From: Dehalococcoidia bacterium
GTDB taxonomy: Bacteria; Chloroflexota; Dehalococcoidia; Lucifugimonadales; Australimonadaceae
Length of the DNA stretch: 64,000 nt
Direction of reading: 5' to 3'
Assembly (NCBI GenBank): GCA_965249325.1
Contig: CBDFLP010000020.1
Coordinates: 321,428-385,427 of the forward strand
The position numbers and the translations under genes are program-made. Positions 1,125 through 61,196 of this stretch are shown one piece after another. The first letter of the stretch is position 1. Each line of letters starts with the position of its first letter. Under the pieces are notes generated by a model, which saw only the letters and a program-made list of their open reading frames with translations, had not been told where the DNA came from and made no database searches.

Positions 1125-1277
1125 GCAGGCTTCACCAACACTTTCGTGAAGTAAATCTCAGGGATTTTACAACGGGCCATGGGAGGGCTGACAGTCCATT
1201 ACGCTGCGGATTGGCGTCGGACTCAGGGCGGCCCCCTCTCAAATGTCCCCCGCAAACGAGGGCAATAGGCGTGGGGC

Positions 1278-1310
1278 AAGATGCGAAATCTCCCTGCCAT
1301 TTCGCATCTT
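1278..1310. other. Perfect 12-bp-stem inverted repeat in the lipoprotein upstream region
   Basis: AAGATGCGAAAT-ctccctgcc-ATTTCGCATCTT. CAAGATGCG recurs at about 1360. Confidence 0.6.
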
Positions 1311-1381
1311 AACTACGTGGCCGTGGTGCGGTGGACGGGCTTTTAAAGGGGTCAGATTCAAGATGCGCGGGCTCATAGCCG

Positions 1382-1432
1382 CCCCCCAACTCCTCTAGTG
1401 GTCCATGGGATAGGCCCGGAGGAGTTGGGGGG
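1382..1432. other. Perfect 14-bp-stem inverted repeat
   Basis: CCCCCCAACTCCTC (1382-1395) pairs with GAGGAGTTGGGGGG (1419-1432). Confidence 0.6.
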
Positions 1433-1439
1433 ACTCTCG

Positions 1440-1676
1440 GGGCCTATTGGAATCCATGGTAGGGATTGGTCGGGGATGGGGGAAGGGGCAAGTGTCGCGA
1501 CCCCCTCTCAGTCTCCCTCGCAGACGGGGCGAGGAGAGAAACCGCGTGCTGTTGCGTCGCTGCGAGGTTCCCGCCTTCGCGGGAATCTCTCATGTTGGCC
1601 TGTCGGCCCACACCACAACCAACGAAAGTAGGCGGGCGGGGCGGCCCCCTCTCTAACTCTCCCCCGCAGACGGTGG
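1440..1676 (+). repeat. Mosaic REP-like repeat array, interrupted at its 3' end by the IS. Modules: GGGGxAAGGGGCAAGTGTCGC, CCCCCTCTC..CGCAGACGG, and the hairpin GGTTCCCGCCTTCGCGGGAAT.
   Basis: Module strings recur at 24741-24765, 56787-56812, 52225-52250 (rc), 52089-52205 (rc), 57023-57050 and 59206-59233. Confidence 0.85.
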
Positions 1677-3045
1677 GGTCACGTCCCCGCAAGTGGTGTA
1701 AGAGCGCCACTCTCGCGGTCTGATCAGGCTGCCCCTGCGGGCAGCAACATCGAGTCCTCCCTCGTGTGCTGAGTCCCCTCGTCGACGACAGGCGTGGACA
1801 GGTAGCGGCGGGCGACCTGCCACTCGTCGTGCTGCTCGGCCAACACCGCACCGATGAGCCGTTGGACCGCGGCCCGGTTCGGAAAGATGCCCACCACGTC
1901 CGTGCGGCGTCTGATCTCCTTGTTGAGCCGCTCCTGCGGGTTGTTCGACCAGACCTGCTGCCAGTGGGCCACGGGGAAGGCGGTGAAGGCCAAGATGTCG
2001 GGGCCTGCATCCGCCAATAGCGCCGCCGCCTGGGGGAAGCGTTCGTCGAGCATGCCCACCATGCGTGCGTGTTGGCCGTGGACGTCTTCCGGCGAGGGCT
2101 GCTGATAGATCGTCCGCACCATCGTCGCCACCCACGGTTGGGCCCGGCGAGGGACCTTGGCGAGCAGGTTGGTCATGAAGTGCGTGCGGCAGCGCTGCCA
2201 CGACGCCCCTGCGAACACCGTGGCGATGGCGTCCTTCAAGCCCTGGTGCGCATCGGAGGTCACCAGCTCCACTCCACCCAGGCCCCGGGCCACCAGCGAG
2301 CGCAGGAACGCCAGCCAGAAGGCGCCGTCCTCGCTCGTGCCCACGTCGATGCCGAGCACCTCGCGCTTCCCCTCCCGGTTGACGGCGGTCGCCACCACGA
2401 CACTGACGTTCACGATCCGTCCACTCTCGCGCACCTTCTGGGTGAGGGCGTCCAGCCACAGGTAGGGATACGGCCCGCCGTCCAGTGCCCTGCCCAGGAA
2501 CGAGCCCACTACACCATCGAGCTCCTGGCAGATGCGCGAGACCTGGCTCTTCGAGATCCCCTCGCAGCCGAGGGCTTGCACCAGGTCCTCGACGCGGCGG
2601 GTGGAAACGCCTTCTACATGGCCTGCTGCACGACCGCGAGCAAGGCGCGCTCACTGCGCCGGCGCGGCTCGAGCAGCGAGGGGAAGTAGCTGCCCTCCCG
2701 CACCTTGGGAATCTGGAGGTCCAGCGTGCCCACCCGCGTGTCCCACGGCCGAGGCCGGTAGCCGTTGCGGTGCGTGAGCCGCTCCGGGCTGCGTCCACCG
2801 AGGCCCGCACCGGTCTTCCTCACCACTTCAGCCTCCATCACCGCCTGCATCAACACCCGCAGCCCTTCCCGCAAGAAGTCAAGGTCGGCATCAGCCGCCT
2901 CCTTGCGTAGCAGCTCCAGCACGTCCATCATCTCCTTGGCCATCGCGTTCACCTCCGCACCGTTGTCGTTCTCGGTGAGGGTGACGCAGTGGCCCTTGTC
3001 TTGCCAGGCCCTCCTGTCTCTTACACCACTTCCTGGGACTCTACT
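1677..3045 (-). mobile_element. IS256-family insertion sequence (1369 bp)
   Basis: Imperfect terminal inverted repeats: GGTCACGTCCCCGCAAGTGGTGTAAGAG (1677-1704) against the rc of 3018-3045, AGTAGAGTCCCAGGAAGTGGTGTAAGAG (22/28 by eye). An 8-bp direct repeat GACGGTGG flanks the element at 1669-1676 and 3046-3053. It encloses a Mutator/IS256-type transposase. Confidence 0.85.
1724..2943 (-). pseudogene. IS256-family transposase, disrupted by a 1-nt frameshift near 2617-2620
   Basis: The N-terminal part MAKEMMDVLELLRKE...LLAVVQQAM* stops at 2614. The next frame continues VEGVSTRRVEDLVQALGCEGISKSQVSRICQ... to 1724. DDE-region motifs WLDALTQKV, VTSDAHQGL and ERLNKEIRRRT are present. Confidence 0.85.
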
Positions 3046-3115
3046 GACGGTGGAGAGGACTTTCGAAGCAATGACGGAAGGGGAGACTCCCCCGCAGGCA
3101 GACGGGAGAGAGGCT
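3046..3115 (+). repeat. Right-hand remainder of the REP composite split by the IS, plus one further CCCCCGCAGxCAGACGGGAGAGAGG module
   Basis: GACGGTGGAGAGGACTTTCGAAGCAATGACGG equals the rc of 52073-52104. Confidence 0.85.
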
Positions 3116-3123
3116 CCAGCGTG

Positions 3124-3166
3124 TGCTATACTCCTATACGACCCCCGCCTGACGGGGGTTTCATTG
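3124..3166 (+). promoter_or_regulatory. Candidate prfA leader with an extended -10 (TGcTATACT) followed by a 7-bp-stem hairpin and a T-rich run
   Basis: TGCTATACT at 3124-3132, then ACCCCCG-cctga-CGGGGGT (3141-3159) followed by TTCATTG, about 20 nt before the prfA GTG. Confidence 0.3.
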
Positions 3167-3181
3167 TGAAAGCGGCCAGCC

Positions 3182-4267
3182 GTGTTCGAGCGTCTCGAGA
3201 ATCTCCTGAAACGCAGCGAAGAGATCGACGAACTCTTCGCCAAGCCTGAAGCCGTCTACGACCCGGAGCAAGTCAACAAGCTCGCCAAGGAGCGCTCCGA
3301 CCTCCAGCCCGTCGTGACGGCTTACCGGCAGCTCCAAGCCGCCCAGGCCGACCTCGCCGACGCCAAGTCGCTGGCGGGCGATGACGACCCCGAGGTGGCC
3401 ACTATGGCCCGCGAGGAGATCGAGCGCCTCTCCGCCGACATGGAGCGTTTGGAATCGGAGCTGCGGACCACCCTCATCCCGAAAGACCCCCGCGACGGCA
3501 AGAACGTCATCATGGAGATACGGGGCGGCACGGGCGGCGACGAGGCTGCGCTCTTCGCCGGCGACCTCTTCCGCATGTACCAGCGCTACGCCCAGCGGCA
3601 CAGGCTGCAGGTCGAAATCGTCAACACGAGCGAGACGGAGGGGGGCGGCTTCAAGGAGGTCGTCTGTTCCATCGCCGGGCGGGGCGCCTACCGGCAGCTC
3701 AAGCATGAGAGCGGCGTCCACCGCGTTCAGCGCGTGCCCGTCACCGAGGCCCAGGGCCGCATCCATACGTCCACCGCCACCGTCGCCGTCCTGCCCGAGG
3801 CCGACGAGGTGGACGTAGCGATCAGGCCGGAGGACCTTCGGATCGACATCTTTCACTCCGGCGGCCCCGGCGGACAGAACGTCAACAAGGTTGCAACGGC
3901 CGTGCGCGTCGTCCATAACCCCACCGGCATCGTGGTCGTATCCCAGGGCGAGCGCTCACAGCTACGCAACAAGAACGAGGCGCTCGCAGTGCTGCGCTCC
4001 CGGCTCTACGAGCAGCAGATGCAGGAGCAGCACGCCTCCGCCTCCGCGACGCGGCGCTCCCAAGTGGGCAGCGGCGAACGCTCTGAGAAGATTCGCACGT
4101 ACAACTTCCCGCAGGACCGCCTCACGGACCACCGCATCGGCATGTCCATCCACGGCTTGCAAGAGATCATGGCCGGCACCGGCCAGTTCGACTCCCTCGT
4201 CGAGGCCCTCCTCCAGGAAGAGCAGACTCGGCTGCTGGAAGAGGGTGGCGAGGACAGCGCCGCCTGA
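3182..4267 (+). CDS. prfA: Peptide chain release factor 1
   Basis: PxT-type tripeptide context RVPVTEAQGRIHTS, GGQ motif SGGPGGQNVNK, uninterrupted 361-aa ORF. Confidence 0.95.
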   Translation: MFERLENLLKRSEEIDELFAKPEAVYDPEQVNKLAKERSDLQPVVTAYRQLQAAQADLADAKSLAGDDDPEVATMAREEIERLSADMERLESELRTTLIPKDPRDGKNVIMEIRGGTGGDEAALFAGDLFRMYQRYAQRHRLQVEIVNTSETEGGGFKEVVCSIAGRGAYRQLKHESGVHRVQRVPVTEAQGRIHTSTATVAVLPEADEVDVAIRPEDLRIDIFHSGGPGGQNVNKVATAVRVVHNPTGIVVVSQGERSQLRNKNEALAVLRSRLYEQQMQEQHASASATRRSQVGSGERSEKIRTYNFPQDRLTDHRIGMSIHGLQEIMAGTGQFDSLVEALLQEEQTRLLEEGGEDSAA

Positions 4268-10359: not shown

Positions 10360-12459
10360 GTGGTTATCTATCGCTATTCCCGGTGGGACGGGTCCCAGAA
10401 CGTCGAGTTCCCCACGACTGAGGACCTGATCGACCGCCTCTCGGAGCAGATTCTCCAGGGAGACGATCTGCGCGGCGCCCTGCGCAGGATGATGCAGCGC
10501 GGCTTCCAGGACGCCAAGGGCCAGCGCGGCATGGGCATGCAAGACCTGCTCGACAAGCTCCGGGAAGCGCGCGAACGCAACCTCGAACGCTACAACCTCG
10601 CCTCGATGTTCGACGACATCGCCAAGCAGGTTGACGAAGTCATCGAGCAGGAGCGGCGGGGCATCGACAAGCGCCTCCAAGAGATACGCCCGTCTCCCCT
10701 CTCCGGCCCTCCTCCGCAGACGGGGGAGGGGGCGGAGTCCGGTTCACCCCCGCAGACGGGAGAGGGAGCGGAGGAAGGCGAGGGCGGCGGCGATGTCCCC
10801 CCGGAGCTTGCCGACATGCTCCGGCAGATGGCCAACCGGCATCTCGATCAGCTCGATCAGCTTCCTCCCAACGCGGGCGGCCGCATCAAGAAGCTTCGCG
10901 ATTACGATTTCATGGACCCGGAGGCGCGCGAGAAGTTCGAGGAGCTGCTGCAACAGCTCCAGCAACAGGTGCTGCAGCAGTACTTCCAGGGTCTCCAGCA
11001 GAGCTTGCAGAACATGACCCAGGAGGACCTCTCGCAGGTTGCGGCCATGGTCCGCGATCTGAACGAGCTCGTTAAGCAGAAGCTCCAGGGCGACGATCCG
11101 GACATCACCGAGTTCATGAACAAGTGGGGGCATATGTTCCCCCCCGGCATCGAGAATTTCGACCAGCTGATGGACCACATGTCCAAGCAGATGGCCCAAA
11201 TGCAATCGCTGATGAACTCGATGCCTGCGGAGATGCGTCGCCAGCTCGAAGACATGATGGAGGGCCTGCTGCAGGACAACCGGCTCTCATGGGACCTGTT
11301 CGAACTCGCCACAAACCTGGAACGGATGAACCCCGGCCGGTTCCAGGACAACGACTTCCGGATGTTCGGCGACGAGCCCGTCACCCTCCAGCAAGCCCTC
11401 GAGCTGATGGGCGACCTCAACAACATGGAGGAGCTCGAATCTCAGATCCGCCAGGCGCTGCGCACCAACGACGCCACCAAGATTGACGCCGACGAGATCG
11501 GAAACGTTCTTGGCGACGAGGCCGGCCGTTTCGCCAAAGAGCTGCAACGGCTCGCCAAGGAGCTGGAGGAGGCGGGTTTCATCCGCAGGAAGGGCCAGGG
11601 CTGGGAGCTCACTCCTCAGGCCATTCGCAAGATCGGCGACAAGGCCCTCACCGACATCTTCAACCGCATCCGCGGAGGCGACCTCGGCGACCATAACCGC
11701 GAGAAGAGCGGGGTCGGCGTCGAGTTGACCGACGAGACGAAGAAGTGGGAGTTCGGCGATCCCCTCCACCTCAACACGCTCAAGACCGTCAGCAACGCCG
11801 TCCTGCGGGAAGGGCCGGGCACGCCCGTCCGCATCAAGCCCGAAGACTTCGAAATCGACCGCACCATCTCCCAGACACGGGCGTCGACGATCATAGCTAT
11901 CGACATGAGCTATTCGATGTTCTGGGACGGCGCGTTCCAGGCGGGTCAGCGGGTAGGGCTGGCCCTCGACACGCTCATCAAGTCCAAGTATCCCAAGGAC
12001 CAAGTCTCGGTCGTCGCCTTCTCCTACTTCGTGCTGCCCCTCGAGTCGCACATGCTCCTCGACACCTACTGGGTAGAGCACGGCGGCGGGACGAATTTCC
12101 AGGAAGTGCTCCGCCAGTCCCGCCAGATGCTGGCCCGCCAGGGCGGCAACAATAAGCAGATCATCCTCATCACCGACGGCGAGCCCACGACCTACAACTG
12201 GACCGAGGGCGATGTACGAGCGAACTACATGCGGCGCGGGGGCGGACTGATCGAAGCGACCATGCGCGAGGTGATGCGCTGCACACGCGACAACATCACC
12301 ATCAACATCTTCATGCTCGACCAGAGCCCTTCGCTCCTTCGTTTCGTTCAACTGATGACGAAGATGAACAAGGGCCGCGCGTTCGTCGCCAGCCCGGACA
12401 ATCTGGGCTCCTATGTCGTCGCCGACTACGTCTCCAACCGCAACAAGGTCATCCGCTAG
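10360..12459 (+). CDS. von Willebrand factor A domain protein (COG4867-like)
   Basis: Family-typical N-terminus MVIYRYSRWDGSQ. C-terminal vWA fold with MIDAS context IIAIDMSYSM ... ILITDGEPT. Confidence 0.75.
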   Translation: MVIYRYSRWDGSQNVEFPTTEDLIDRLSEQILQGDDLRGALRRMMQRGFQDAKGQRGMGMQDLLDKLREARERNLERYNLASMFDDIAKQVDEVIEQERRGIDKRLQEIRPSPLSGPPPQTGEGAESGSPPQTGEGAEEGEGGGDVPPELADMLRQMANRHLDQLDQLPPNAGGRIKKLRDYDFMDPEAREKFEELLQQLQQQVLQQYFQGLQQSLQNMTQEDLSQVAAMVRDLNELVKQKLQGDDPDITEFMNKWGHMFPPGIENFDQLMDHMSKQMAQMQSLMNSMPAEMRRQLEDMMEGLLQDNRLSWDLFELATNLERMNPGRFQDNDFRMFGDEPVTLQQALELMGDLNNMEELESQIRQALRTNDATKIDADEIGNVLGDEAGRFAKELQRLAKELEEAGFIRRKGQGWELTPQAIRKIGDKALTDIFNRIRGGDLGDHNREKSGVGVELTDETKKWEFGDPLHLNTLKTVSNAVLREGPGTPVRIKPEDFEIDRTISQTRASTIIAIDMSYSMFWDGAFQAGQRVGLALDTLIKSKYPKDQVSVVAFSYFVLPLESHMLLDTYWVEHGGGTNFQEVLRQSRQMLARQGGNNKQIILITDGEPTTYNWTEGDVRANYMRRGGGLIEATMREVMRCTRDNITINIFMLDQSPSLLRFVQLMTKMNKGRAFVASPDNLGSYVVADYVSNRNKVIR
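10696..10773 (+). repeat. Two REP-like modules (CGCAGACGGG type) embedded in frame in the vWA gene
   Basis: CCCCTCTCCGGCCCTCCTCCGCAGACGGGGGAGGGGGCGGAG and CACCCCCGCAGACGGGAGAGGGAGCGGAG, translated as SGPPPQTGEGAESGSPPQTGEGAEEGEGGG. Confidence 0.8.
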
Positions 12460-22097: not shown

Positions 22098-24770
<2,673 letters not shown>

Positions 24771-24815: not shown

Positions 24816-25841
24816 CTAGGAGGTCGAGACCGCCGCCAGCGCTGACTCCAGCTCCGCCAACGAGACGTAGCCTTCGAAGCGCGAATCAATGCGGCCGTCC
24901 GCGCCTATCACAAAGGTCCAGGACTCGTTGCGGTAGTGGGGCACCTGGTCGACTCCCCACTCCGCCAGCACCGGCGAGAGGACGCCTCGCGATAGGTCTC
25001 CCTGGATCTCGTGGGGGTTGTCGTATATCTCCACGTGGATGTAGTCTGCCGCGTCCGGGTTGCTGTCCTTGAGCTCAGACAGCGTCTGCACTTGCGGGCC
25101 ACACGTGGGAGTCGTGCAGAAGGCCGGCGACGCAAAGACGACGACACTCGGCCTGCCCGAGAAGATCGACTCCGCGATGCTCAGCTCATACAACTCAGCA
25201 TCCGGCTGGTAGTCCGACGTCAGCTTGGTCAGGTCGCCCTGGACCGTCTCAACCGTCTTGGTGTTGCTGAACAGGGCTATCTGCCCGATGTCGCGCACAA
25301 TCGACGTTTCCTCCACCTCCACGAGCAGCTCAGCCACGCCGACCACCGACGCGTCATCCACTGCGATATCCAGCCGCCACCTGCCGGCCTGGGGGAAGGT
25401 CAGCTCCGTCACGTACGACCCACGCGTCCCGAATGGCCAGAGGTCGAACGCGGCGGTCGTGGACTCGGACTGCGCGTCGCCGTCCAAGAACGTCGTCCGC
25501 ACGCTCGCCTCGGGGGCCGAAACGAGCGCCGTCGCCGATTCCAGCAGGAACGCGACGCGCTGTGTGCCTGTCCGCAGCACTGTCGTCCCCAAGATTGGCG
25601 TCAGCTCCTCGACGGACGAGGCTGGAGTTGGCGTAGAGGTCGGCGCGAGAGTTGGCGTGCTGGCCGGAGCGGGAGTTGGCGTGACGTCAGGCGCCGGGGT
25701 TGGCGTGCTGGCGGGCGCCAGGGTCGGCGTGGAGGTTGGCTCGTGGGTCGGCATGGAGGTCGGCGTTGGGGTCGAGCAGGATACTGCCAGAAGGCCAACG
25801 CCTATCGCCACGAACACAAACTGCAGTCGCCAGGTGCGCAT
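24816..25841 (-). CDS. Secreted lipoprotein with a PT-rich linker and a C-terminal thioredoxin-fold-like domain (CX4C)
   Basis: MRTWRLQFVFVAIGVGLLAVSC|STPTPTS.., VVVFASPAFCTTPTCGPQV... The thioredoxin-fold assignment comes from motif recall only. Confidence 0.55.
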   Translation of the reverse strand: MRTWRLQFVFVAIGVGLLAVSCSTPTPTSMPTHEPTSTPTLAPASTPTPAPDVTPTPAPASTPTLAPTSTPTPASSVEELTPILGTTVLRTGTQRVAFLLESATALVSAPEASVRTTFLDGDAQSESTTAAFDLWPFGTRGSYVTELTFPQAGRWRLDIAVDDASVVGVAELLVEVEETSIVRDIGQIALFSNTKTVETVQGDLTKLTSDYQPDAELYELSIAESIFSGRPSVVVFASPAFCTTPTCGPQVQTLSELKDSNPDAADYIHVEIYDNPHEIQGDLSRGVLSPVLAEWGVDQVPHYRNESWTFVIGADGRIDSRFEGYVSLAELESALAAVSTS

Positions 25842-25850
25842 AGAGGTCTC

Positions 25851-27347
25851 CTAAAAGGTCTCGGCATACGACCCGAACGTGAGCGCGAACAGCGCAAAGT
25901 CGGGTGAGTTTGATAGGAACTTCAGCTCGCCCTCCGAGAATTCGGGCAGCGATACAGCGTTGTAGAGCCGCGCTTCGTCGACCGTGAAGTAGCTTCGCTC
26001 GTCCTCGATGACGATGTCCTCGCCGGCCTCCTCAGCCGTGAGGGGCCGGTCGTGCAGGGTGACTTCCACCTCGAATGGCTCCGCGCCGTCCGGCAGGTCT
26101 ATCACGGCGTTCACCGTTCGGGCGAAGAAGCGGAGCGCGATGTAGTCTTCGAGTTCCTCGGTCGATCTCCCATGCCTGATGGACTCCAGGTCCGATGTCC
26201 ACGAGCCGTGCAGGTAGATGAATTGATTGGCGTGATTCCCCGGGTCCACGTAGGACTGGGTTAGTCCCACACCTTCGTAGTACTCCGGGTGGGCGATGTA
26301 GCGGCCCGTCGTCGAGTTGTTCCTTCTCCACCCGCCGTAAATCTCCCGTGTCTGCCGGTCCTGGAAAGACGTGCCGGACGCCCGCGGGTCTCGCGCCGGA
26401 CCTGAGCTCAGGCCCGACGCGAGACCCGAAACGTCGAACCCGGCTTCGTCGAGCAGCGCCCGTATCTGCTGCTCCGTCTCGACGTACGCGCCTTCGCCGA
26501 AGCGTGTGTAGCGCACGACGCCGTCGGCGTCGATCAAGTATTTGGCGGGCCAGAACCGGTTGCTGTACGCGCGCCACGTCCCCGATGCGTTGTCTTGCGC
26601 GACCGGCCAATCAACCCCCAGCTCCTCCATCGCCACAACGACATTCGCTGTGATCTTTTCGAACTCGAACTCCGGCCTATGCACGCCAACGATGGTCAGC
26701 CCGCGGTCCGCGTATTTCGCGTGCCAGTCGCGCAGGTAGGGCATCGTGCGGATGCAGTTGATGCAGGAGTACGTCCAGAAGTCGATGAGCACCACTCCCC
26801 CGCGAAGCTCTTCCATGGTCAAGGGCTCGCTGTTGAGCCAGTTGTTGATCCTGGTGAACTCAGGCGCCGTGTCCCCCGGAGCGCCGCCCACCCTGCCGGT
26901 GAGCGCGGGCATCATCGGCGTGGGCGTGGGGGTCGGCATGGGCGTGGGCGTGGACGTAGGCCCCGGAGTGGGGGTTGAGGCCGTAGGCGTCGGGGTAGGT
27001 GTAGGTGTGGGAGTCGGCGAGGGCGAGGGCGTAGGTGTGGGCGTAGGTGTGGGCGTCGGGGTAGGCGTGGAAGTCGGCGCCGGTGTCGGTGTGGGCGTCG
27101 AGGTAGGCGTGGGAGTCGGCGCCGGTGTCGGCGTGGGCGTCGAGGTAGGCGTGGGAGTCGGCGCCGGTGTAGGAGTGGGAGCCGGGGTTGGCGTGGGGGT
27201 TGGAGGCTCCGGCGTCGGCGCTACCGGAGTAGGCGTGGAAGTCGGAGCCGGCACCGGCGTAGGGGTTGGGGTCGGGTCGGAGCAGGCCACGGCCAACAGG
27301 ACGATGCCCATCGCCGCGAGCGCAAGCTGTAATCGAAGGGGCCGCAT
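25851..27347 (-). CDS. Secreted lipoprotein with a PT linker of over 100 aa, a DipZ-C-like thioredoxin domain (CxxC) and a C-terminal beta-sandwich region
   Basis: [22 protein letters not shown]|SDPTPTP.., [50 protein letters not shown]. Confidence 0.8.
27072..27170 (-). repeat. 42-bp tandem duplication (about 2.4 copies, 41/42 identity between full copies) inside the PT-linker coding region
   Basis: AGTCGGCGCCGGTGTCGG(T/C)GTGGGCGTCGAGGTAGGCGTGGG at 27072-27113 and 27114-27155, partial third copy from 27156. Confidence 0.9.
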
Positions 27348-27356
27348 CAGGGTCTC

Positions 27357-28646
27357 CTAGATGGTGTCCAAGTACGAGCCAAACGTCAGCGCAAACAGCG
27401 CGAAGTCCGGCGAGTTCGATGAAAACTTGAGCTCCGCGCTGCCGAACTCCGGCAGGGCGACGACGTTGTACAGGTCGGCCTCGTCCACCACGAAGTAGCT
27501 GCGACCGTCTTCGATGACGATGTGCTCGCCTGCTTCCTCGGCGGTGAGCGGACGGTAGGCCAGCTCCGCCCCGGAGTCTGCGCCCTCTTCCGGGATGTCC
27601 GCAATCGTGACCTCTACCTCGAACGGCTCCGCGCCCTCTTCGAAGTCGAGCACGATGTTCACCGTGCGGGCGAAGAAGAGCAGCGCGATGTAGTCCTCCA
27701 AGTCCTCGGTCGCCCTTCCGTGCCTGATCGACTCGAAGTCCGATGTCCATCGGCCTTCCAGGTAGATGAACTGGTTGATGTGGTCTTTCGGGTCCCGGTA
27801 GAACTGGGTGTACTCCGGACCACCCTCGTAGTAGTGCGGGTGTGCGATGTAGAAGCCGGAGGAGTTCCGGCTAAAGCCGCCGTATATCTCCCGCGTCTGC
27901 TGGTCACGGGGAGACGTGCCGTAGGCTCGCTGGTCCGGCACAGGGCCGGGGTCGGGGTTCGACGCGACGCCTGAAACGTCGGCGCCTGCCTCTGTAAGCA
28001 ACTCTCGTATCTGCTCCTCGGTCTCGTTGTACGCGCCCTCGCCGAAGTGGGTGTAGCGCACGACGCCGTTGGCGTCGATGAGGTACTTGGCGGGCCAGAA
28101 CCGGTTGTTGTACTCGCGCCACGTTCCGAATTCGTTGTCCTGCGCCACCGCCCAATCGACCCCTAGCTCCTCTGTGGATGCGATGACGTTCTCTGTGACC
28201 TTCTCGAACTCGAACTCCGGCGTATGCACCCCGACGATGGTGAGCCCTTGGTCCGCGTACTTCGCTTGCCAGTCCCGAAGGTAGGGAATCGTGCGGATGC
28301 AGTTGATGCACGTGTACGTCCAGAAGTCGATGAGCACCACCTGTCCGCGAAGCTCCTCTATGGTCAACGGGTCGCTGTTGACCCAGTTGGCGATTCCCGT
28401 GAACTCGGGCGCCGTGTCCCCCGGAGCGCCGCCCACGTCGCCGGTGAGCTCGATCCGGGGGAGTTCGACGCCCTCATCCGCGCTGGCCTCTGCATTTGCG
28501 TCAATGGGCGTCGGCACGGTCTCGGCGGGGGTCGGGCCGGCCTCGGTGGGCGTTGGGGCTGCCTCGGACGCGCACGCCGCAACGAACGCGACGGTTGCTA
28601 CGAGGACGCCGACGGGGACCAGAAGGCGAGCGAAGCGCATCATCAC
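27357..28646 (-). CDS. Secreted lipoprotein, a DipZ-C-like thioredoxin (CxxC) paralogue of 25851-27347
   Basis: MMMRFARLLVPVGVLVATVAFVAAC|ASE.., [50 protein letters not shown]. Collinear with its neighbour. Confidence 0.8.
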   Translation of the reverse strand: MMMRFARLLVPVGVLVATVAFVAACASEAAPTPTEAGPTPAETVPTPIDANAEASADEGVELPRIELTGDVGGAPGDTAPEFTGIANWVNSDPLTIEELRGQVVLIDFWTYTCINCIRTIPYLRDWQAKYADQGLTIVGVHTPEFEFEKVTENVIASTEELGVDWAVAQDNEFGTWREYNNRFWPAKYLIDANGVVRYTHFGEGAYNETEEQIRELLTEAGADVSGVASNPDPGPVPDQRAYGTSPRDQQTREIYGGFSRNSSGFYIAHPHYYEGGPEYTQFYRDPKDHINQFIYLEGRWTSDFESIRHGRATEDLEDYIALLFFARTVNIVLDFEEGAEPFEVEVTIADIPEEGADSGAELAYRPLTAEEAGEHIVIEDGRSYFVVDEADLYNVVALPEFGSAELKFSSNSPDFALFALTFGSYLDTI

Positions 28647-47597: not shown

Positions 47598-49820
47598 ATG
47601 ACCGGCCCCGCTGAGGCGCTCCTCCAAGGACTCAACCCCCCGCAGCGTGAAGCCGTCGAGCATGTCGACGGCCCGCTGCTGATCGTCGCAGGCCCCGGCT
47701 CCGGCAAGACTCGCGTCATCACCCACCGCATCGCCTACCTCAACCAGCGCGTCGGCATCGGCCCCAGCCGCATCGCCGCCGTCACCTTCACCAACCGCGC
47801 CGCACGGGATATGCGCTCCCGTCTGGAACGCCTCATGGGCGAGCGCGCCCGATACCTCTTCGCCGGCACCTTCCACGCCCTTTGCGCCATGATTCTGCGG
47901 CGCGACGGCGAGGCCATCGGCATCCCCAAAGAGTTCGTCATCATGGACGACGATGATCAGATGGGCCTCATCAAGCAGGCGATGGAGCTGGCCGAGGTCA
48001 ACCCCAAACGTTTCCCTCCACGCGCCGTTCTATCCGCCATCAGTTCCGCCAAGTCCCAGCTCCTCGGCCCGGAGGGCTTTGCCGGCAGCGCCCAGGGCTA
48101 CTACGACGAGGCCGTACATCGCGTCTTCGTCCAATACCAGGGCCTCCTAGCCCGCAGCCGCGGCGTCGATTTCGACGACCTCCTGAGCCGGACCGTGGAG
48201 CTCCTCCGCCAGTCCCCCGAAACGAAGGCCAAGTACCAGGAACGGTTCGTCCACATCATGGTCGACGAGTTTCAGGACACCAACGTCGCCCAGTACCAGA
48301 TCGCCCGCGAGCTTGCGGGCAAGCATCGCAACCTCACCGTTGTGGGCGACCCCGACCAGTCCATCTACTCCTGGCGCAACGCCGACATTCGCAACATCCT
48401 TTCCTTCCAGAAAGACTACCCCGAATCGAAGGTCGTCCATCTCTCTCAGAACTACCGCTCGACCGGCACGATCCTCGACGCCGCCCAGCACGTCATACGC
48501 CCCAACAGCCAGCGTATCGAGCAGCGCCTGTTCACCGAGAACGAGCCCGGAGCCCCGGTCTACGTCGCCGAGGCCTACAACGAGGAGGAGGAAGCCCAGG
48601 GCGTCATCCGCGAGGTGCAGCGCCTCATGGAGGAGGAGAGTGTCACCCTGCGCGATTGCGTCGTGACCTACCGAGTCAACGCCCAGTCCCGCGCCTTGGA
48701 GGAGGCGTGCCTCCGCTACGGCGTCCCCTACAAGCTCATCGGCGGCGTCCGCTTCTACCAGCGGCGCGAGGTCAAGGACGTGGTCGCCTACCTGCGCCTG
48801 CTCCAGGATCCCTACGACGAGGTCAGCCTCACGCGCGTCATCAATGTGCCGGCGCGCGGCATCGGCAAGAAGACTGTCGACGACCTCACCGCGTGGGCGC
48901 GCACACTGGACATCCCCGCTTACAGCGCGCTCCAGCTGTTGACCGACGAGTCGGGCGAGCATCCGTCGCCCTTCGACGCGCGTCAGAAGCGCCAGCTTGC
49001 AGGCTTCCTCTCCCTGATCAACGCCCTGCGCGAACGCGCCGCTGACCTTGAGCTGCCCGAACTCATCGACGAGGTGATGGAGCGCTCCGGCTACCGGCGC
49101 TCGCTCATCGAGTCCGGTGACTCCGACGCTGAGGACCGCCTCGACAACATCCGCGAGTTCCGGGGAATGACCGCTGACCTCGCCGGTGCGCCCGCCGCCG
49201 AGAACCTGCCGGCCTTCATCGAAAGCGTGACCCTCGTCTCCGACCAAGACGCCATCCAAGAGGACGAGCAGCAATACCTCACTCTCATCACTCTCCACCA
49301 GATCAAGGGCCTCGAATACCCCGTCGTCTTCATCACCGGCATGGAGGAAGGCATCCTGCCCCACATGCGCTCTCTCGACGACCCCGACCAGCTCGAGGAG
49401 GAGCGCCGCATCGCCTACGTCGGCATGACCCGCGCTCGCAAGCGCCTCTACCTGCTGCGGTCGCTGCGCAGGATGATGTACGGCAGGACAGGCCCGGGGT
49501 ACGCGTCGCGCTTTCTCATGGACATCCCCTACAACCTCATCGAGGTCCCGGCCCGCAAGCAGCGCGACGGGGCCGCCTCTGACGCCATCCGTCATTCCCG
49601 CGAAGGCGGAAACCTCGCCACTGCATCCGGCGTGAGCGCCCCCGCCCAGCCGCCGCCGTTCAAGGCAGGCGACAAGGTCGCTCATGCCAGCTTCGGCAAG
49701 GGCGTCGTCGTCAACTGCGCCCCGCGCCCTGACGACTACGAGGTAACTGTCGCATTCGTGGGGGCCGGCATCCGCCGGTTGCTCCACAGCTACGGCAAGC
49801 TCGATAAGGTCGTAAGCTAG
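47598..49820 (+). CDS. pcrA: ATP-dependent DNA helicase PcrA/UvrD (SF1)
   Basis: GPGSGKTRVITHR, MVDEFQDTN, VGDPDQSIYSWRNA, LSQNYRS, TLHQIKGLEYPVVF, RIAYVGMTRARKRL. Confidence 0.95.
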   Translation: MTGPAEALLQGLNPPQREAVEHVDGPLLIVAGPGSGKTRVITHRIAYLNQRVGIGPSRIAAVTFTNRAARDMRSRLERLMGERARYLFAGTFHALCAMILRRDGEAIGIPKEFVIMDDDDQMGLIKQAMELAEVNPKRFPPRAVLSAISSAKSQLLGPEGFAGSAQGYYDEAVHRVFVQYQGLLARSRGVDFDDLLSRTVELLRQSPETKAKYQERFVHIMVDEFQDTNVAQYQIARELAGKHRNLTVVGDPDQSIYSWRNADIRNILSFQKDYPESKVVHLSQNYRSTGTILDAAQHVIRPNSQRIEQRLFTENEPGAPVYVAEAYNEEEEAQGVIREVQRLMEEESVTLRDCVVTYRVNAQSRALEEACLRYGVPYKLIGGVRFYQRREVKDVVAYLRLLQDPYDEVSLTRVINVPARGIGKKTVDDLTAWARTLDIPAYSALQLLTDESGEHPSPFDARQKRQLAGFLSLINALRERAADLELPELIDEVMERSGYRRSLIESGDSDAEDRLDNIREFRGMTADLAGAPAAENLPAFIESVTLVSDQDAIQEDEQQYLTLITLHQIKGLEYPVVFITGMEEGILPHMRSLDDPDQLEEERRIAYVGMTRARKRLYLLRSLRRMMYGRTGPGYASRFLMDIPYNLIEVPARKQRDGAASDAIRHSREGGNLATASGVSAPAQPPPFKAGDKVAHASFGKGVVVNCAPRPDDYEVTVAFVGAGIRRLLHSYGKLDKVVS
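49589..49616 (-). repeat. REP-type hairpin module embedded in frame in the pcrA linker
   Basis: CCGTCATTCCCGCGAAGGCGGAAACCTC is the rc-type of GAGGTTCCCGCCTxCGCGGGAATGACGG. Translated as IRHSREGGNL. Confidence 0.75.
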
Positions 49821-52072: not shown

Positions 52073-52205
52073 TCATTGCTTCGAAAGTCCTCTCCACCGT
52101 CTGCGGGGGAGAGTTAGAGAGGGGGCCGCCCCGCCCGCTACTTTCGTCGGTTGTGGTGTGGGGCGTCAGCCCAACATGAGGGATTCCCGCGCAGGCGGGG
52201 ACCTC
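52073..52205 (-). repeat. Uninterrupted copy of the REP composite that carries the IS at 1677-3045 (the 'empty site')
   Basis: The rc reads ..CTCATGTTGGGCTGACGCCCCACACCACAACCGACGAAAGTAGCGGGCGGGGCGGCCCCCTCTCTAACTCTCCCCCGCAGACGGTGGAGAGGACTTTCGAAGCAATGACGG. It is collinear with 1587-1676 plus 3054-3080, and GACGGTGG occurs only once. Confidence 0.9.
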
Positions 52206-52224
52206 CCGGCGGCGCGGTTCCACC

Positions 52225-52527
52225 GCGACATTTACCCCTTACCCCAACCCGCCCCCAACGCGTATTCTGAAATCTCCATCATGTCCACCCCTAGCCCCGT
52301 CCCGACATCCCAAGCCCTCTCCGGTCAGCCCCAGCGTCTGCGCCCGCCAGAAACGCCCCCCAAGGAGCGTGTGCCACCGTGTTTTTTCATTTCGCTCGCA
52401 TTCTTGATCGCAGGAAGCAGGCCGTGGCCTGCTAAACAGCCCCGATCAAGAAGGTGAAAGTACCCCCTCCGGCGGCACAGACCATCTTCCCTTACGAGTA
52501 AAAATCCCATCAAGAAGCTGATTTGCT
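52225..52527 (-). repeat. Third, diverged and rearranged copy (E) of the non-coding module, upstream of sucC
   Basis: GCGACATTTACCCCTTACCCC (rc of the GGGGTAAGGGG..TGTCGC module), CAGGAAGCAGGCCGTGGCC, and CTTACGAGTAAAAA. Core motif ATCAAGAA(G/T) starts at 52445 and 52509, with an inverted copy (ATTCTTGAT) at 52400-52408. Confidence 0.7.
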
Positions 52528-52590
52528 CCACCCTCTCTAACCTCTCTGCGAGGGAGACTGAGAGGGGGCCGTCTGCGGGAGAGAGGGGTC
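52528..52590. repeat. REP-like CCCTCTC/GAGAGGG palindromic modules
   Basis: CCACCCTCTCTAACCTCTCTGCGAGGGAGACTGAGAGGGGGCCGTCTGCGGGAGAGAGGGGTC. Confidence 0.8.
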
Positions 52591-52655: not shown

Positions 52656-53804
52656 ATGAAGCTCCACGAATACCAGGCCAAGGAGCTCCTAGCCGGTTAT
52701 GGCGTGCCCGTCCCTGAGAGCTACGTCGCTGCGTCAGGCGCCGAGGCTGCTGACGCGACCGTGAAGCTCGGCGGGACGGCCGTTATAAAGGCTCAGGTGC
52801 ATGCCGGCGGGCGCGGAAAGGCTGGCGGCGTGAAGGTAGTCGGCGACCCCGCCGAGGCTGCCAAGTTCGCCGACTCGCTCATCGGCTCGACCCTCGTCAC
52901 CTTCCAGACTGGCCCCCAAGGCGCGTCCGTCCATAAGGTGCTCGTCGAGCAGACGATGAACATTGAGCGCGAGCTCTACCTCAGCATCACCACGGACGGC
53001 GGACGGCGCCGTCCCGTCGTCATCGCATCGGCCTCGGGCGGGATGGAGATTGAGGAAGTCGCCCAGACCGAGCCGGACAAAGTCTTCACCGAGCCCATCG
53101 ACCCCGCGATTGGCTTTCAGCCCTTCCAGGGCCGACGCCTCGCCGAGATGCTCGACCTCCCCCCGGCGCAGACCCGACCCTTCTCCGCTCTCGTCGACGC
53201 TTGCTACCGGGCCTATATGACCCTCGACTCCAGCATGATTGAGATCAACCCCCTCGTCCTCACCAACGACGGAAAGATGCTCGCCCTCGACGCCAAGGTC
53301 AGCATCGATGATGACGCCCTCTTCCGGCACAAGCCCGAGGCCGAGCTGCGCGACGCCTCCCAAGAGGAGGACCTCGAGGTCCAGGCCTCCGAGGCGGGCA
53401 TCGCCTACGTCAAGCTCGACGGCAATGTCGGTTGCATGGTCAACGGCGCCGGCCTGGCCATGGCCACGATGGACACCGTGAAATTCGCCGGCGCCGAGCC
53501 CGCGAACTTCCTTGACGTCGGAGGCGGCGCGGCCGAGCAAAAGATCAGCCACGCCATCCTGCTGATGCTCTCCGACCCCAACGTCGAGAAAGTCCTCGTC
53601 AATATCTTCGGCGGCATCCTCCGATGCGACATCGCCGCGCGCGGCGTTATCGACGCCTACGAGAGGGCGGACCGTCAGCCTCCATTGGTCGTCCGCATGC
53701 TCGGGACCAACGTGGACGAGGGCAAACAGCTCCTCGCCGATTCCGGAATCAAAGCAACCATGGTCGACACGCTTGAAGAAGCTGCGGACGCCATCAAAGC
53801 CTAG
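52656..53804 (+). CDS. sucC: Succinate--CoA ligase subunit beta
   Basis: [20 protein letters not shown].. and [18 protein letters not shown]. Confidence 0.97.
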
Positions 53805-54896: not shown

Positions 54897-56090
54897 CTAG
54901 TCGTAGTCCTGCAGCGTTCCCTTCTTGTTCTCGGGGCCCGCCACGCCCGTGCAGGTGGCGACCAGGTTCTTCATCCGGCATTCCTGGCCGTGCTTGCGCA
55001 GCTCCTCCTCGAAGATCTCGTGGACGCGAGGGTCCTCGTCCTCGTACTCGAGCTGGATGCCGCCCTCCTTGATGCTGACCATGGCGCGGTTCTCCCCTCG
55101 CCGCGTCGGGTCGTTGGCGCCGCGCTCGTAGGTGTACTTGCGCGAGTTCGACGGGCTCATGTTGATGTAGCGCGCCGGCGTCGTGCCTACGTTGAAGTGC
55201 TGGTGGAAGTACTCGCTGTAGGAGTCCTGCGTCGGTAGGTACAAGCTCCCCTCCCCCCAGTCGGCCTTCACCAAGTCGGACATGTCCTCGTTCTTCCACA
55301 CCAGCGCGAAGCCCTCCCCGCCGGTGATGAGCAGGTGCGCGCCGGGGCCGTGGCGGTGCGCCTTCTTGTACGTCCCCACCGGGAACTCCGAGATGTGGGA
55401 CGACACGGTGTTGTCGGACAACGACAGCATGATGTTCGTGCCGCCCGCGCCGCGCTCCGACCAGTCCGGCATCGGCATGTTCTTTGCGTCCGGCAGGAAG
55501 TTCGTCTCCCACACCCGGCCCTTGTACATCATGCCCGAGCCGGAGGCCCATCCCTCTTCCACGTTCAGGCGGTCCGGGAACGTGTAGGGATTGTTCCAGA
55601 TGAAGTCCGGCGTGATGAACTTGCGGATCATGCTCGGTAGATTAGTCACCGACACCATGCGGGTCGGATCGGAGCCGCTGCCGTTGAAGTGCTGGTACGA
55701 CGCGTTCATCGGGATGGAGAAGTAAGCCCCCTTGGCCCACTCGAACGTCTGCTTCTTCGACTCGTCGTACCACACCGAGGTCGCGCCCCGTCCGCTGAGC
55801 ACGTAGATGACCTCGTTGTACATGTGGTGCTCGGGGTTGGTCTTGCCTGCGGGCGCGATCTCCAAGACGTGCTCGTCGGTCCCCTCGTCGCCGTCGAGAT
55901 AGACCACCGCCCCATTGCAGCCCTTGCGGGGCCAGTAGTCCAGCTCCAGCGTGAGGAGGCTCTTGACGTAGAGGCCTCCGTGGAGTTTGGCTCCTTCGTC
56001 CTTCTGCCACTCCTCGTAGGTGTCGATGCGCTCGAAAGCCTGCAGTGCCGACGGGTCGTAGCTTTGCACGACAATCTCTTTGTTCGTCAT
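54897..56090 (-). CDS. Bicupin-fold protein (putative metal-dependent dioxygenase or isomerase)
   Basis: Two cupin-like segments: ..PEHHMYNEVIYVLSGRG.. and ..KKAHRHGPGAHLLITGGEG..YFHQHFN. The specific function was not recognised. Confidence 0.55.
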   Translation of the reverse strand: MTNKEIVVQSYDPSALQAFERIDTYEEWQKDEGAKLHGGLYVKSLLTLELDYWPRKGCNGAVVYLDGDEGTDEHVLEIAPAGKTNPEHHMYNEVIYVLSGRGATSVWYDESKKQTFEWAKGAYFSIPMNASYQHFNGSGSDPTRMVSVTNLPSMIRKFITPDFIWNNPYTFPDRLNVEEGWASGSGMMYKGRVWETNFLPDAKNMPMPDWSERGAGGTNIMLSLSDNTVSSHISEFPVGTYKKAHRHGPGAHLLITGGEGFALVWKNEDMSDLVKADWGEGSLYLPTQDSYSEYFHQHFNVGTTPARYINMSPSNSRKYTYERGANDPTRRGENRAMVSIKEGGIQLEYEDEDPRVHEIFEEELRKHGQECRMKNLVATCTGVAGPENKKGTLQDYD

Positions 56091-56400
56091 CTTGCTCCTC
56101 CTTCGCTGTGTTTCCGGCGCGCCGCCGGGCCGCGTTGCGCGGCACCCCCGACACTATCCCCGCGCGCCCCGCGCGTCAAGGAATCCCCGCTCGCGTCAGC
56201 GGGGGCGCCGCGCGGCTGCGGGTGTCTCGCCGTGTCCAGGATGATTTCACCTCCCGCACTCGTAACCTTCCCCGGTCCTCCGAGTGCGCGGGGGCGCCTT
56301 GACGCTGTAGGTGAGACATTGTGAGCCAAGTTGGGCCATTTACCAGTAGGCGCGAGGCTCCCCCACAGGCGAGCAGACCCAACGACCGGTGTAGGGCAGC

Positions 56401-56815
56401 AGGAAAGTTGGGGTGAGGCGGGAAGTTGTCGGTTTGTGCGGAAAAACTTGTCGACCGCATTTTTGTTAGGCGTGAAAAAGTTGTCGGCTGCATTTTCGCC
56501 AGGCGTGAGAAGTTGTTGGTTTGCATATTGGTTTACGAGTAAAAAGTTGTTGAAAGCGGGGGTCGAGACGGGGGTTTTGGAGGGTGTTTTTGTGGCCGCG
56601 GCCTGCTTCCCGGGTCTCAGAACTTGTTGATTCGAAATTCTGTTGTTACGCGAGGCGCGTGGGGTCGGCGGCGTAGTGGGCACAAGGGAGGTTGCCGCAT
56701 TCGGAGGGCGCGGGCACCGGGGAGGAGGCAGTTCTCGGCTTGAGGCAGGGCATAGAGGGGCTAATTTTACGAGGGTCGGGAGTTTGGGGTAAGGGGCAAA
56801 TGTCGCAGTGGGCTG
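56401..56815 (+). repeat. Non-coding module copy D with exact 33-bp tandem sub-repeats (core AAGTTGTCG/AAGTTGTTG) plus the scaffold shared with 24401-24770
   Basis: Units at 56442-56474, 56475-56507 and 56508-56540, with the next starting at 56541. Scaffold strings are shared with copy C. Confidence 0.85.
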
Positions 56816-56879: not shown

Positions 56880-56948
56880 CGCGGGAACGACGGAGGGGAG
56901 GGCGCGGGAACGACGGAGGGGAGGGCGCGGGAACGACGGAGGGGTAGG
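56880..56948 (+). repeat. 23-bp tandem repeat x3 of a REP half-module
   Basis: CGCGGGAACGACGGAGGGGAGGG at 56880-56902, 56903-56925 and 56926-56948 (the last with one change). Confidence 0.9.
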
Positions 56949-57022
56949 GGAGACCTGCTAAACTCCCGCCCACGTTGATAGAGACCCTCTGTGTAACTAC
57001 CCCAGCGTCAAGGATTCGCGGC

Positions 57023-57050
57023 GAGGTTCCCGCCTACGCGGGAATGACGG
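57023..57050 (+). repeat. REP-type hairpin module
   Basis: GAGGTTCCCGCCTACGCGGGAATGACGG (stem TTCCCGC/GCGGGAA). Confidence 0.85.
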
Positions 57051-57074
57051 AAGGGGTTGTGCAAGGTCTCGGTT

Positions 57075-59180: not shown

Positions 59181-59205
59181 GCGCGCGGGATGACAGAGAG
59201 GGGAC

Positions 59206-59233
59206 GAGGTTCCCGCCTGCGCGGGAGTGACGG
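59206..59233 (+). repeat. REP-type hairpin module between convergent genes
   Basis: GAGGTTCCCGCCTGCGCGGGAGTGACGG, preceded by the half-copy CGCGGGATGACAG. Confidence 0.85.
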
Positions 59234-61160: not shown

Positions 61161-61196
61161 GCGCTCGAATGCGCTCGAATGCGCTCGAATGCGCTT
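61161..61196. repeat. 10-bp tandem repeat GCGCTCGAAT x3 plus a partial fourth unit
   Basis: Exact copies at 61161-61170, 61171-61180 and 61181-61190, then GCGCTT. Confidence 0.9.

Follow-up and report, generated by a model that had tools for sequence, protein, structure and literature searches.

A phased array of sites with a type-switching 4-nt core in a recurrent intergenic cassette of Dehalococcoidia

Phased binding sites upstream of genes, direct repeats placed around a core and upstream regions shared by unrelated genes have all been described in bacteria. Here we compare these systems with an array of short repeat units found in a 64,000-nt stretch of Dehalococcoidia DNA (the window; CBDFLP010000020.1 of GCA_965249325.1, positions 321,428-385,427, forward strand). 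The array forms part of a ~420-bp intergenic cassette that is present in exactly four copies in the window (A, C, D and E), one of which, copy D, lies upstream of a cupin-domain ("bicupin") gene. It resembles the phased Fis sites and UP element at rrn P1 in having one-face sites with A-tracts upstream of strongly expressed housekeeping genes, but it lies downstream of the promoter-like end of its cassette, at a variable distance from the proximal promoter, and has a type-specific core. The Tn7 TnsB sites, the Mu ends and the lambda arm sites are likewise direct repeats of a ~15-20-bp asymmetric site, at fixed spacing round a core, that differ between subfamilies; unlike these, the cassette has no second inverted array, no terminal inverted repeats and no linked recombinase, and its orthologous positions are stable. 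The Lrp sites of pap are spaced by about three helical turns, as are those of the present array. Like the pap-type phased Lrp arrays with GATC switches (PMC10073500), the array comprises six sites that fall into two groups in front of a gene, and one array type contains GATC inside the distal site and inside one or two sites of the array proper. In sequence the sites are unrelated to those of pap, however, the array occurs at dozens of loci, and GATC is absent from the two other core types.

The pneumococcal BOX elements (boxA-boxB(n)-boxC) are also modular intergenic repeats with an internal tandem sub-repeat that occur near genes in a narrow lineage (PMC3049150). Whereas the boxB copy number varies and BOX is thought to act via RNA structure (PMC3049150), the unit number and spacing of the present cassette are fixed, only its 4-nt core varies, an RNA structure is unsupported, and there is no sequence similarity between the two. 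The putative mobile promoters, or cases of promoter reuse, described by Nijveen, Matus-Garcia and van Passel share with it the highly similar upstream regions before unrelated genes, the promoter-like signature and the regulatory motifs carried along (PMC3575422). They differ from it in that the present cassette has a rigid 5+1 array with a type-switching core and a G-quadruplex motif, and was found in one Dehalococcoidia clade only. A literature search gave no relevant description of a Chloroflexi repeat family of this kind. Judging from the sequence patterns presented below, we tentatively favor the view that the array may be a set of phased operator or enhancer sites, recognized by a few paralogous DNA-binding proteins and located within a reusable promoter cassette.

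Tandem Repeats Finder reported a period-33 array in copy D at positions 56441-56516 (2.3 copies, 81% matches). Direct reading gave core-to-core distances of 18, 22, 33, 32 and 34 bp, followed by 77 bp across a conserved box, and unit lengths of 19, 19, 33, 33 and 34 bp before the last unit; units u1 to u3 are referred to here as ~33-bp units (Table 1). The first-pass annotation of this DNA had described units of exactly 33 bp. The period is real and the three spacings of 33, 32 and 34 bp sum to 99 bp, but the units measure 33, 33 and 34 bp, so that "exact" is slightly too strong. Each unit starts with an A-tract anchor (GAAAAAGTT), which is followed by the 4-nt core. The cores read GTCG, GTCG (after CTT), GTCG, GTTG and GTTG in this order, and GTTG in the seventh copy of anchor plus core, which is located 77 bp past the last unit, beyond the conserved box GGCCGCGGCCTGCTTCC. 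Copy C (array part 24402-24603) has the same layout; each of its four array units has the core TTCCCC (anchors at 24406, 24428, 24460 and 24492), and the distal core is CTTCCCG at 24570. The core sequences of copy D agree with those given earlier.

The four copies in the window have in common the box and a 21-nt terminus, GGGGKAAGGGGYAARTGTCGC. The box pattern and the terminus motif were each observed four times, against 0.22 and 0.01 expected occurrences, respectively. When species-representative genomes were scanned for the terminus motif, 37 loci were obtained, 34 of which belong to two Dehalococcoidia metagenome-assembled genomes (MAGs; OZ252088.1 and CBDHDB01; cassette loci are labelled with L numbers). 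The window derives from a third, related genome, whose bicupin is 98.3% and 95.5% identical to the two orthologues. The module was absent from all of the at least 120 loci listed in a metagenome scan with the box 16-mer, and plasmid and phage collections gave no match to the cassette. The cassette has so far been seen only in one group of Dehalococcoidia.

To compare arrays we used 15 aligned cassettes of the class formed by copies C and D (class 1). These cassettes align unit by unit, with a constant number of five sites plus one distal site, and the distance of each core from the box varies by no more than ±1 bp. The six core positions fit a single 10.95-bp lattice with R=0.985, above the 99.9th percentile of the null (0.976); only 0.2% of random six-site sets reached R >= 0.97. 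The sole array length variant has +10 bp between two units and preserves the phase. Spacing that is constant to this degree, together with an indel that keeps the phase, argues for a geometric constraint. It had been proposed that 33 bp, being three helical turns, places the cores on one DNA face. At 10.5 bp per turn the sites are misaligned (R=0.36), and this argument therefore requires ~11 bp per turn, which is the A-tract periodicity typical for bacterial genomes. With that period it holds: all six sites on one ~11-bp lattice indicates that they lie on one face of slightly underwound DNA. Both marks of phased sites, a common helical face and conserved spacing, were accordingly found in the lattice and in the +10-bp variant.

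Within an array only the 4 nt that follow AAAAAGTT co-vary. Core identity within arrays was 0.80, compared to 0.52 after permutation, and 0 of 10,000 permutations reached the observed value; the 15 arrays are related, though, and contain only three core types, which implies few independent events, so that the permutation p-value overstates independence. The three types are CCCG/CCCC, GTCG/GTTG, and GTCC mixed with GATC, the last of which always has GATC as its distal core. Mixed arrays were found at L025, L008, L011, L018, L031 and L033, that of L025 being graded (GTCC, GCCC, GTCG, GTCG, GTTG, distal GATC). A core specific to each copy, as annotated before, thus holds inside the window, but the recurrent types and the mixed arrays in the related genomes show that "copy-specific" is really "type-specific". 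Outside the core, the unit bodies are 65% identical when the same position is compared across cassettes, and 40% identical both between positions within a cassette and between cassettes. These position-specific bodies exclude ordinary satellite homogenization. Together with the fixed 5+1 layout they led us to reject a tandem satellite or variable-number tandem repeat, and with it the earlier suggestion of a satellite under concerted evolution. No core targets were found elsewhere in the window. The tetranucleotide GATC is under-represented in the window as a whole (190 observed versus 305 expected from trinucleotide counts).

The locus upstream of the bicupin gene offers a direct comparison of core types at orthologous positions. 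The window and one MAG have GTCG/GTTG cores at this locus, and the other MAG (OZ252088) has CCCG. Between the window and OZ252088 all six cores have switched type, with identity at only 8 of 24 core positions (33%; Fisher p=2e-5), whereas identity is 85% at four-fold degenerate sites, taken as neutral, 88% in the promoter plus leader/spacer and 89% in the box region. In the distal unit the core has switched in spite of clearly orthologous flanks, whose identity is 86% with the orthologue and 58% with any other cassette. The bicupin locus appears to catch a putative re-addressing between sister species. A different history is visible in part of the array: units u3-u4 of copy D are closer to those of the paralogous locus L035 (80%) than to those of the orthologous locus L032 (73%), indicating that ectopic conversion between cassettes contributes to the change.

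That observation also bears on the main rival explanation, in which the cassette is a selfish or neutral interspersed repeat whose matched cores are a by-product of short-patch conversion and embody no specificity code. The mechanism would be replication template switching primed by the invariant AAAAAGTT anchor, along with ectopic conversion between cassettes. The core does lie directly 3' of the longest invariant stretch of each unit, same-core units form contiguous blocks (three GTCG followed by three GTTG in copy D, and the graded L025 array), and L014 and L025 are duplicated loci whose cassettes recombined inside the array. Array bodies evolve at about the neutral rate and some copies have no gene downstream of the array; similar arguments have been used to class BOX, RUP and SPRITE repeats as parasitic (PMC3049150). 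On the other hand, conversion would have to act in tracts of only ~4 nt, given that homogenization extends neither to position +5 nor to the unit bodies. The spacing constant to ±1 bp, the phase of the single indel and the fixed unit number are not expected of such a repeat either. Neither is the switch of the distal core, which lies 77 bp away with a 7-nt anchor alone to prime templated copying, and the bias in orientation towards gene starts described below would require selection or targeted insertion. We consider this explanation unlikely, though it deserves to be kept in mind; if core matching is neutral after all, the cassettes would be an unusually clean case of conversion confined to a few bases.

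The other two copies in the window show that matching cores are not limited to directly repeated units. The array units of copy E are inverted relative to the box, yet their cores match on both sides of it, and in the orthologue of copy E the two sides have changed in parallel (TTGGTC and GACCAA). Copy A and its approximately 20 relatives contain inverted repeats, as well as further copies of their own motif beyond the box. Among the class-2 copies with a hairpin read by eye, only about half have a perfect inverted repeat, which indicates that base pairing is not strictly maintained. In general, the other cassette classes have the same terminus and a related box but different repeated motifs. 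A common promoter-like end joined to site modules that differ by class gives the impression of one promoter with interchangeable operator sets. One further class with this end was noticed at L009 (2300-2560 in element orientation), where an 11-bp inverted repeat (CTTACGAGTGG ... CCACTCGTAAG) surrounds three tandem GTGCCATTTA; the TACGAGT motif of this class recurs in class-1 units and in copy E.

The terminus, read on the opposite strand, consists of GCGACAYTTGCCCC-TTMCCC, a spacer of 17-18 nt and the hexamer TAnnnT. This hexamer was present 17-18 nt after TTMCCC in all 39 Dehalococcoidia-type copies, in at least eight different versions in which T, A and T are kept and the middle positions vary. 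Such a pattern is the signature expected of a sigma-70 -10 element, and the arrangement of a sigma-70 promoter, with TAnnnT 16-18 nt after a -35 hexamer, was found at the far end of the cassette. In 37 of the 39 copies a G-quadruplex motif (four runs of at least three G, loops of 1-7 nt) on the other strand overlaps the -35 hexamer and the spacer; the G-tracts are kept even though the spacer sequence varies. Only ten such motifs exist in the entire window, four of which are the cassette ends. Predicted transcription from the promoter-like end would cross first the distal site, then the box and then the array. Of 35 heuristic gene calls, 27 place a gene start in front of the array end; among the eight that do not, two or more are spurious open reading frame (ORF) calls. 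Copies C, E and A face katG (start at 24227, minus strand), sucC (start at 52656, plus strand) and a lipoprotein gene (start at 1124, minus strand), respectively. Neighboring genes are diverse, including katG, cupin, sucC, GatB, aldo-keto reductase, PrpD, electron transfer flavoprotein, amidohydrolase and major facilitator superfamily transporter genes, and they carry proximal promoter-like sites of their own. That of the bicupin gene falls under the consensus threshold of the promoter scan.

A promoter-like end that points through the array is also what would be expected if the array acted as RNA, that is, if the cassette promoter gave rise to a long C-rich 5' leader that includes the array and controls read-through into the gene. 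The repeated (core)AACUUUUU modules would then cause pausing or attenuation, or be bound by an RNA-binding protein. In favor of this, the would-be transcribed strand has a run of five to six U per unit, the leader is C-rich and G-poor, and the leader of one subfamily has a conserved segment (CUGCCUCCU) complementary to the box (AGGAAGCAG). The units of copy E, however, are on the opposite strand, the spacer tolerates insertions of repetitive extragenic palindrome (REP)-like repeats and insertion sequences (IS) at L004, L006 and L027, and the genes next to the array have the proximal sites just mentioned. The 10.95-bp lattice, like the +10-bp indel that keeps its phase, is a property of duplex DNA. 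Structure predictions supported an RNA fold neither thermodynamically nor by covariation. When single sequences of the module were folded, they did no better than shuffled ones (z-scores -0.11 and +1.27). Consensus folding of the leaders of seven cassettes predicted long-range pairing of the box with the leader segment, without covariation: a double change was present in 1 of 22 predicted pairs, and the covariation term was unfavorable. Rfam gave no matches in the window at gathering thresholds, and for the four copies only chance-level ones at E values up to 5-10. These results led us to reject a known or evidently structured RNA, and a role of the array as leader RNA seems to us quite improbable.

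The fixed spacing around a central conserved segment, which resembles attP intasomes and the ends of Mu or Tn7, would also suit an assembly site for a recombinase or transposase. Arm-type or end-binding sites would surround the box, the cores would match paralogues of the enzyme, and the enzyme would have spread the cassette. The sharp cassette boundary at GCGAC, the highly similar copies at unrelated loci and the IS elements in or near the cassettes of L006, L027 and window copy A are consistent with this idea. Against it, no transposase or integrase is linked to copies C, D or E and there is no array at the terminus. The Pfam annotation of the window showed no recombinase beside these three copies, and its only transposase is an unrelated IS256-family gene. 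Copy D has no terminal inverted repeats and no second array at its far end, the plasmid and phage collections are without a match, and the presence of cassettes at orthologous sites in three genomes argues against recent movement. Altogether, assembly of such an enzyme complex on the array is a poor candidate explanation. The lack of terminal inverted repeats also shows that copy D is not a miniature inverted-repeat transposable element: it contains no inverted repeat of 10 nt or longer, and copy C has only internal ones. At L024, no target-site duplication was evident by eye at the junctions; the cassettes lack a sharp boundary on the gene side.

The Mutator/IS256-family transposase gene (1724-3243, minus strand) lies ~230 bp past the terminus of copy A and comprises two ORFs; it is probably split by a frameshift. 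Transposase genes also lie inside the cassette spacers of L006 and L027, and these are IS1595-like and IS256-like by reading of their translations. An abundant REP-like palindromic repeat (CCCCCTCTCTAACTCTCCCCCGCAGACGGTGGAGAGG) flanks cassettes and is sometimes present inside them (e.g. in the L004 spacer); it occurs at 1632-1676, 52094-52138, 52532-52571, 10702-10773 and 1500-1535, and at many further loci.

Several other identities were considered for the box and the units. A coding repeat was rejected since the units are 32-34 bp long, one-base indels and frameshifts separate orthologues, and the ATG of the box is lost in C and D; the small ORFs starting at the box ATG and at a leader ATG are both not conserved. 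Comparison of box and units with sigma-70, extended -10, sigma-54, sigma-28, extracytoplasmic function-type and sigma-B-type promoters showed that the spacing is wrong for all of them. The DnaA 9-mer consensus is TTATCCACA or TTGTCCACA. A DnaA-box cluster was rejected, as only u1 of GTCC-type arrays (TTGTCCACC) matches it, at 8 of 9 positions, and the other units and the CCCG and GTYG types fail. Inspection by eye for DnaA, Rex, CRP and LexA boxes and IHF sites gave partial, type-limited matches only.

We return to the possibility, tentatively favored above, that the upstream cassette is lineage-specific and reusable and that the array is its operator or enhancer module. The lattice, the phase-keeping indel, the A-tracts and the use of units in either orientation argue for a duplex-DNA element that would be bound on one face by an oligomerizing protein, with the core as the putative specificity determinant and the box as the likely center of the complex. 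The order of the parts towards the gene is as follows. The invariant promoter-like end (GCGACAYTTGCCCC-TTMCCC-N17/18-TAnnnT), with the overlapping G-quadruplex motif on the other strand, is followed by a poorly constrained spacer of 130-350 bp, and then by a rigid ~270-bp module made up of one site, the box (GGCCGTGGCCTGCTTCC after two phased T-tracts) and five sites, each site being an A-tract anchor (RGCGTGAAAAAGTT) plus a 4-nt core. A protein would bind the sites cooperatively and wrap or loop the DNA around the box, and the 4-nt core would select which of a few paralogous proteins binds. The complex might gate transcription from the cassette promoter to the gene, by a roadblock or looping, or might insulate the proximal promoter of the gene. 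The match of cores within a cassette would be kept by selection, aided by short-tract conversion and by ectopic conversion between cassettes, and a cassette with cores matched in this manner could be re-addressed to another regulator.

The anatomy, the phasing, the restriction of covariation to the core, the type switch at an orthologous locus, the promoter-like signature and the bias in orientation are shown by the sequences, whereas protein binding, specificity for paralogues and an effect on transcription are features that we infer. Several results weigh against operator sites of this kind. In the window none of the cassettes adjoins a gene for a regulator. The -35-like hexamer is weak, TTACCC and TTCCCC matching TTGACA at 3 of 6 positions, and a consensus promoter scan reports no promoter at the cassette end. 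The box fits neither a sigma-70 promoter nor the spacing of sigma-54 promoters, whose consensus is TGGCAC-N5-TTGC with doublets exactly 10 nt apart: the GG and GC doublets in TGGCCGTGGCCTGCTT are 9 nt apart, one short, and class-2 boxes have yet another spacing. Two to three loci (L004/L012, L020 and possibly L015) face the 3' end of a gene, which leaves nothing downstream to regulate, and the distance from array to proximal promoter is variable. Identity of the non-core part of the array between the window and OZ252088 is 79%, as compared to 85% at neutral sites, and the small number of core types limits the independent evidence as stated above. Core type does not track gene function. The suggested correlation with the class of the downstream gene failed, since the bicupin orthologues differ in type, as do the paralogous amidohydrolase genes of L014 and L025. 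Finally, mixed cores inside a single array, which the first-pass annotation had named as a result that would refute its proposal of binding sites for paralogous proteins, do occur in several copies. The lattice, the +10-bp indel and the restriction of covariation to the core are consistent with that proposal; the mixed cores and the missing link to gene class are not.

That core identity does not go with the function of the neighboring gene would be accommodated if recognition came from the cassette itself. Cassette RNA carrying the distal core copy might direct a common protein to the array sites, and guidance by the cassette's own RNA would explain the need for matching cores within a cassette. 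The cores co-vary within a cassette for direct and inverted copies alike, and unrelated cores accompany the same box and promoter-like end in different classes. However, class 1 offers only 4 variable nt and the 15 arrays only three types, and the GTCC-type arrays always have a GATC distal core, so that array and supposed guide mismatch. There is also no structured scaffold RNA, and the annotation of the window contains no candidate effector gene. We regard such guidance as the least probable of the explanations considered. A related idea is that the cassettes form a self-consistent addressing system, in which selection acts on the mutual match of sites and not for a fixed regulon. This is very improbable in our judgement; if it were true, recognition would be by a cassette-encoded factor, for example the RNA of the distal copy guiding a common protein by R-loop or triplex formation, and RNA-guided transcription control would be wired into housekeeping genes.

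If, in contrast, the cores are specificity determinants for a few regulators, as in the operator arrangement that we prefer, the cassettes would constitute a natural set of interchangeable promoter-operator modules, in which a change of 4 nt at each of the six phased sites could re-address a module. Re-addressing at the bicupin locus would make the evolution of cis-regulatory specificity, and the in-step change of a multi-site operator, directly testable. To our knowledge, almost nothing is known about gene regulation in uncultured Dehalococcoidia, and the cassettes may provide a handle on it, as well as a conserved G-quadruplex motif tied to a promoter-like motif. The positions of the features described here are listed in Table 1.

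Table 1. Positions of the cassettes, of the parts of copy D and of associated features in the window
Feature	Position	Strand	Remarks
Copy D cassette	56403-56806	+	Same class as C
Outermost degenerate unit, GAAAGTT-GGGG (GTTGGGG)	56403-56421	+	19 bp, from sequence; GGGG kept in 3/3 orthologous cassettes
Unit u0, short, 19 bp	56422-56440	+	Core GTCG at 56428-56431
Unit u1, 33 bp, GAAAAACTT + core GTCG	56441-56473	+	Core at 56450-56453
Unit u2, 33 bp, GAAAAAGTT + core GTCG	56474-56506	+	Core at 56483-56486
Unit u3, 34 bp, GAGAAGTT + core GTTG	56507-56540	+	Core at 56515-56518
Unit u4, AAAAAGTT + core GTTG, last before box	56541-56565	+	Core at 56549-56552
Conserved box region, two T-tracts, then GGCCGCGGCCTGCTTCC at 56594-56610	56566-56619	+	Near-invariant across 15 cassettes
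Distal unit, GAACTT + core GTTG (56626-56629), 77 bp after u4	56620-56652	+	Flanks orthologous to L032, core type switched
Variable spacer (leader if transcribed), C-rich on minus strand	56653-56763		Sequence varies by cassette subfamily
Promoter-like end, GCGACATTTGCCCC, TTACCC (56792-56787), 17-nt spacer, TAAAAT (56769-56764)	56764-56806	-	Terminus motif
G-quadruplex motif, copy D	56773-56796	+	
Proximal promoter-like site of bicupin gene, TTGACG-N17-TAGTGT	56151-56179	-	Outside cassette; by eye; invariant in three orthologous regions
Cupin-domain (bicupin) gene	54897-56090	-	Pfam Cupin_2; faced by array end of copy D
Copy C cassette, four TTCCCC units	24402-24756	+	Box 24542-24558; promoter-like end 24713-24756; faces katG
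G-quadruplex motif, copy C	24722-24746	+	
Copy E cassette, TTCTTGAT cores (inverted units) + ATCAAGAA flanking box	52225-52530	-	Box 52415-52429; promoter-like end 52225-52268
G-quadruplex motif, copy E	52235-52256	-	
Copy A cassette (class 2), inverted repeat CAAGATGCGAAAT/ATTTCGCATCTT, box GTGGCCGTGGTGCGGT, third CAAGATGCG	1262-1498	+	Promoter-like end 1456-1498
G-quadruplex motif, copy A	1462-1488	+	

Some further repeats were observed near copy D. At 56290-56340, in the stretch from the array to the proximal promoter-like site of the bicupin gene, there is a short tandem motif (CACnATGTCTCAC), the copy number of which differs among the three genomes (the window and the L019 and L032 orthologous regions); it may be the bicupin gene's own operator. 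Adjoining copy D, a 23-bp tandem repeat (CGCGGGAACGACGGAGGGGAGGG) is located at 56880-56949 (3 copies, 97% matches). It is kin to a dispersed ~30-nt motif, TTCCCGCCTRCGCGGGAATGACGGA, which forms a second small repeat family with related copies at 57016-57054, 49585-49619, 1557-1586, 59205-59233 and 52183-52211.

Apart from these elements the window is ordinary chromosome, containing rpoBC, pheST, infC-rplT, katG, sucCD and similar genes. Long imperfect coding repeats of 12, 18, 24 or 42 bp, encoding Pro/Thr-rich linkers, were found at 246-1124, 25621-25780 and 26890-27250; their hosts are a lipoprotein gene and two tandemly duplicated AhpC/TSA-thioredoxin-like genes next to katG (25851-27347 and 27357-28646). 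A perfect 10-bp tandem repeat (GCGCTCGAAT; 3.5 copies, 100% matches) is located at 61161-61195.

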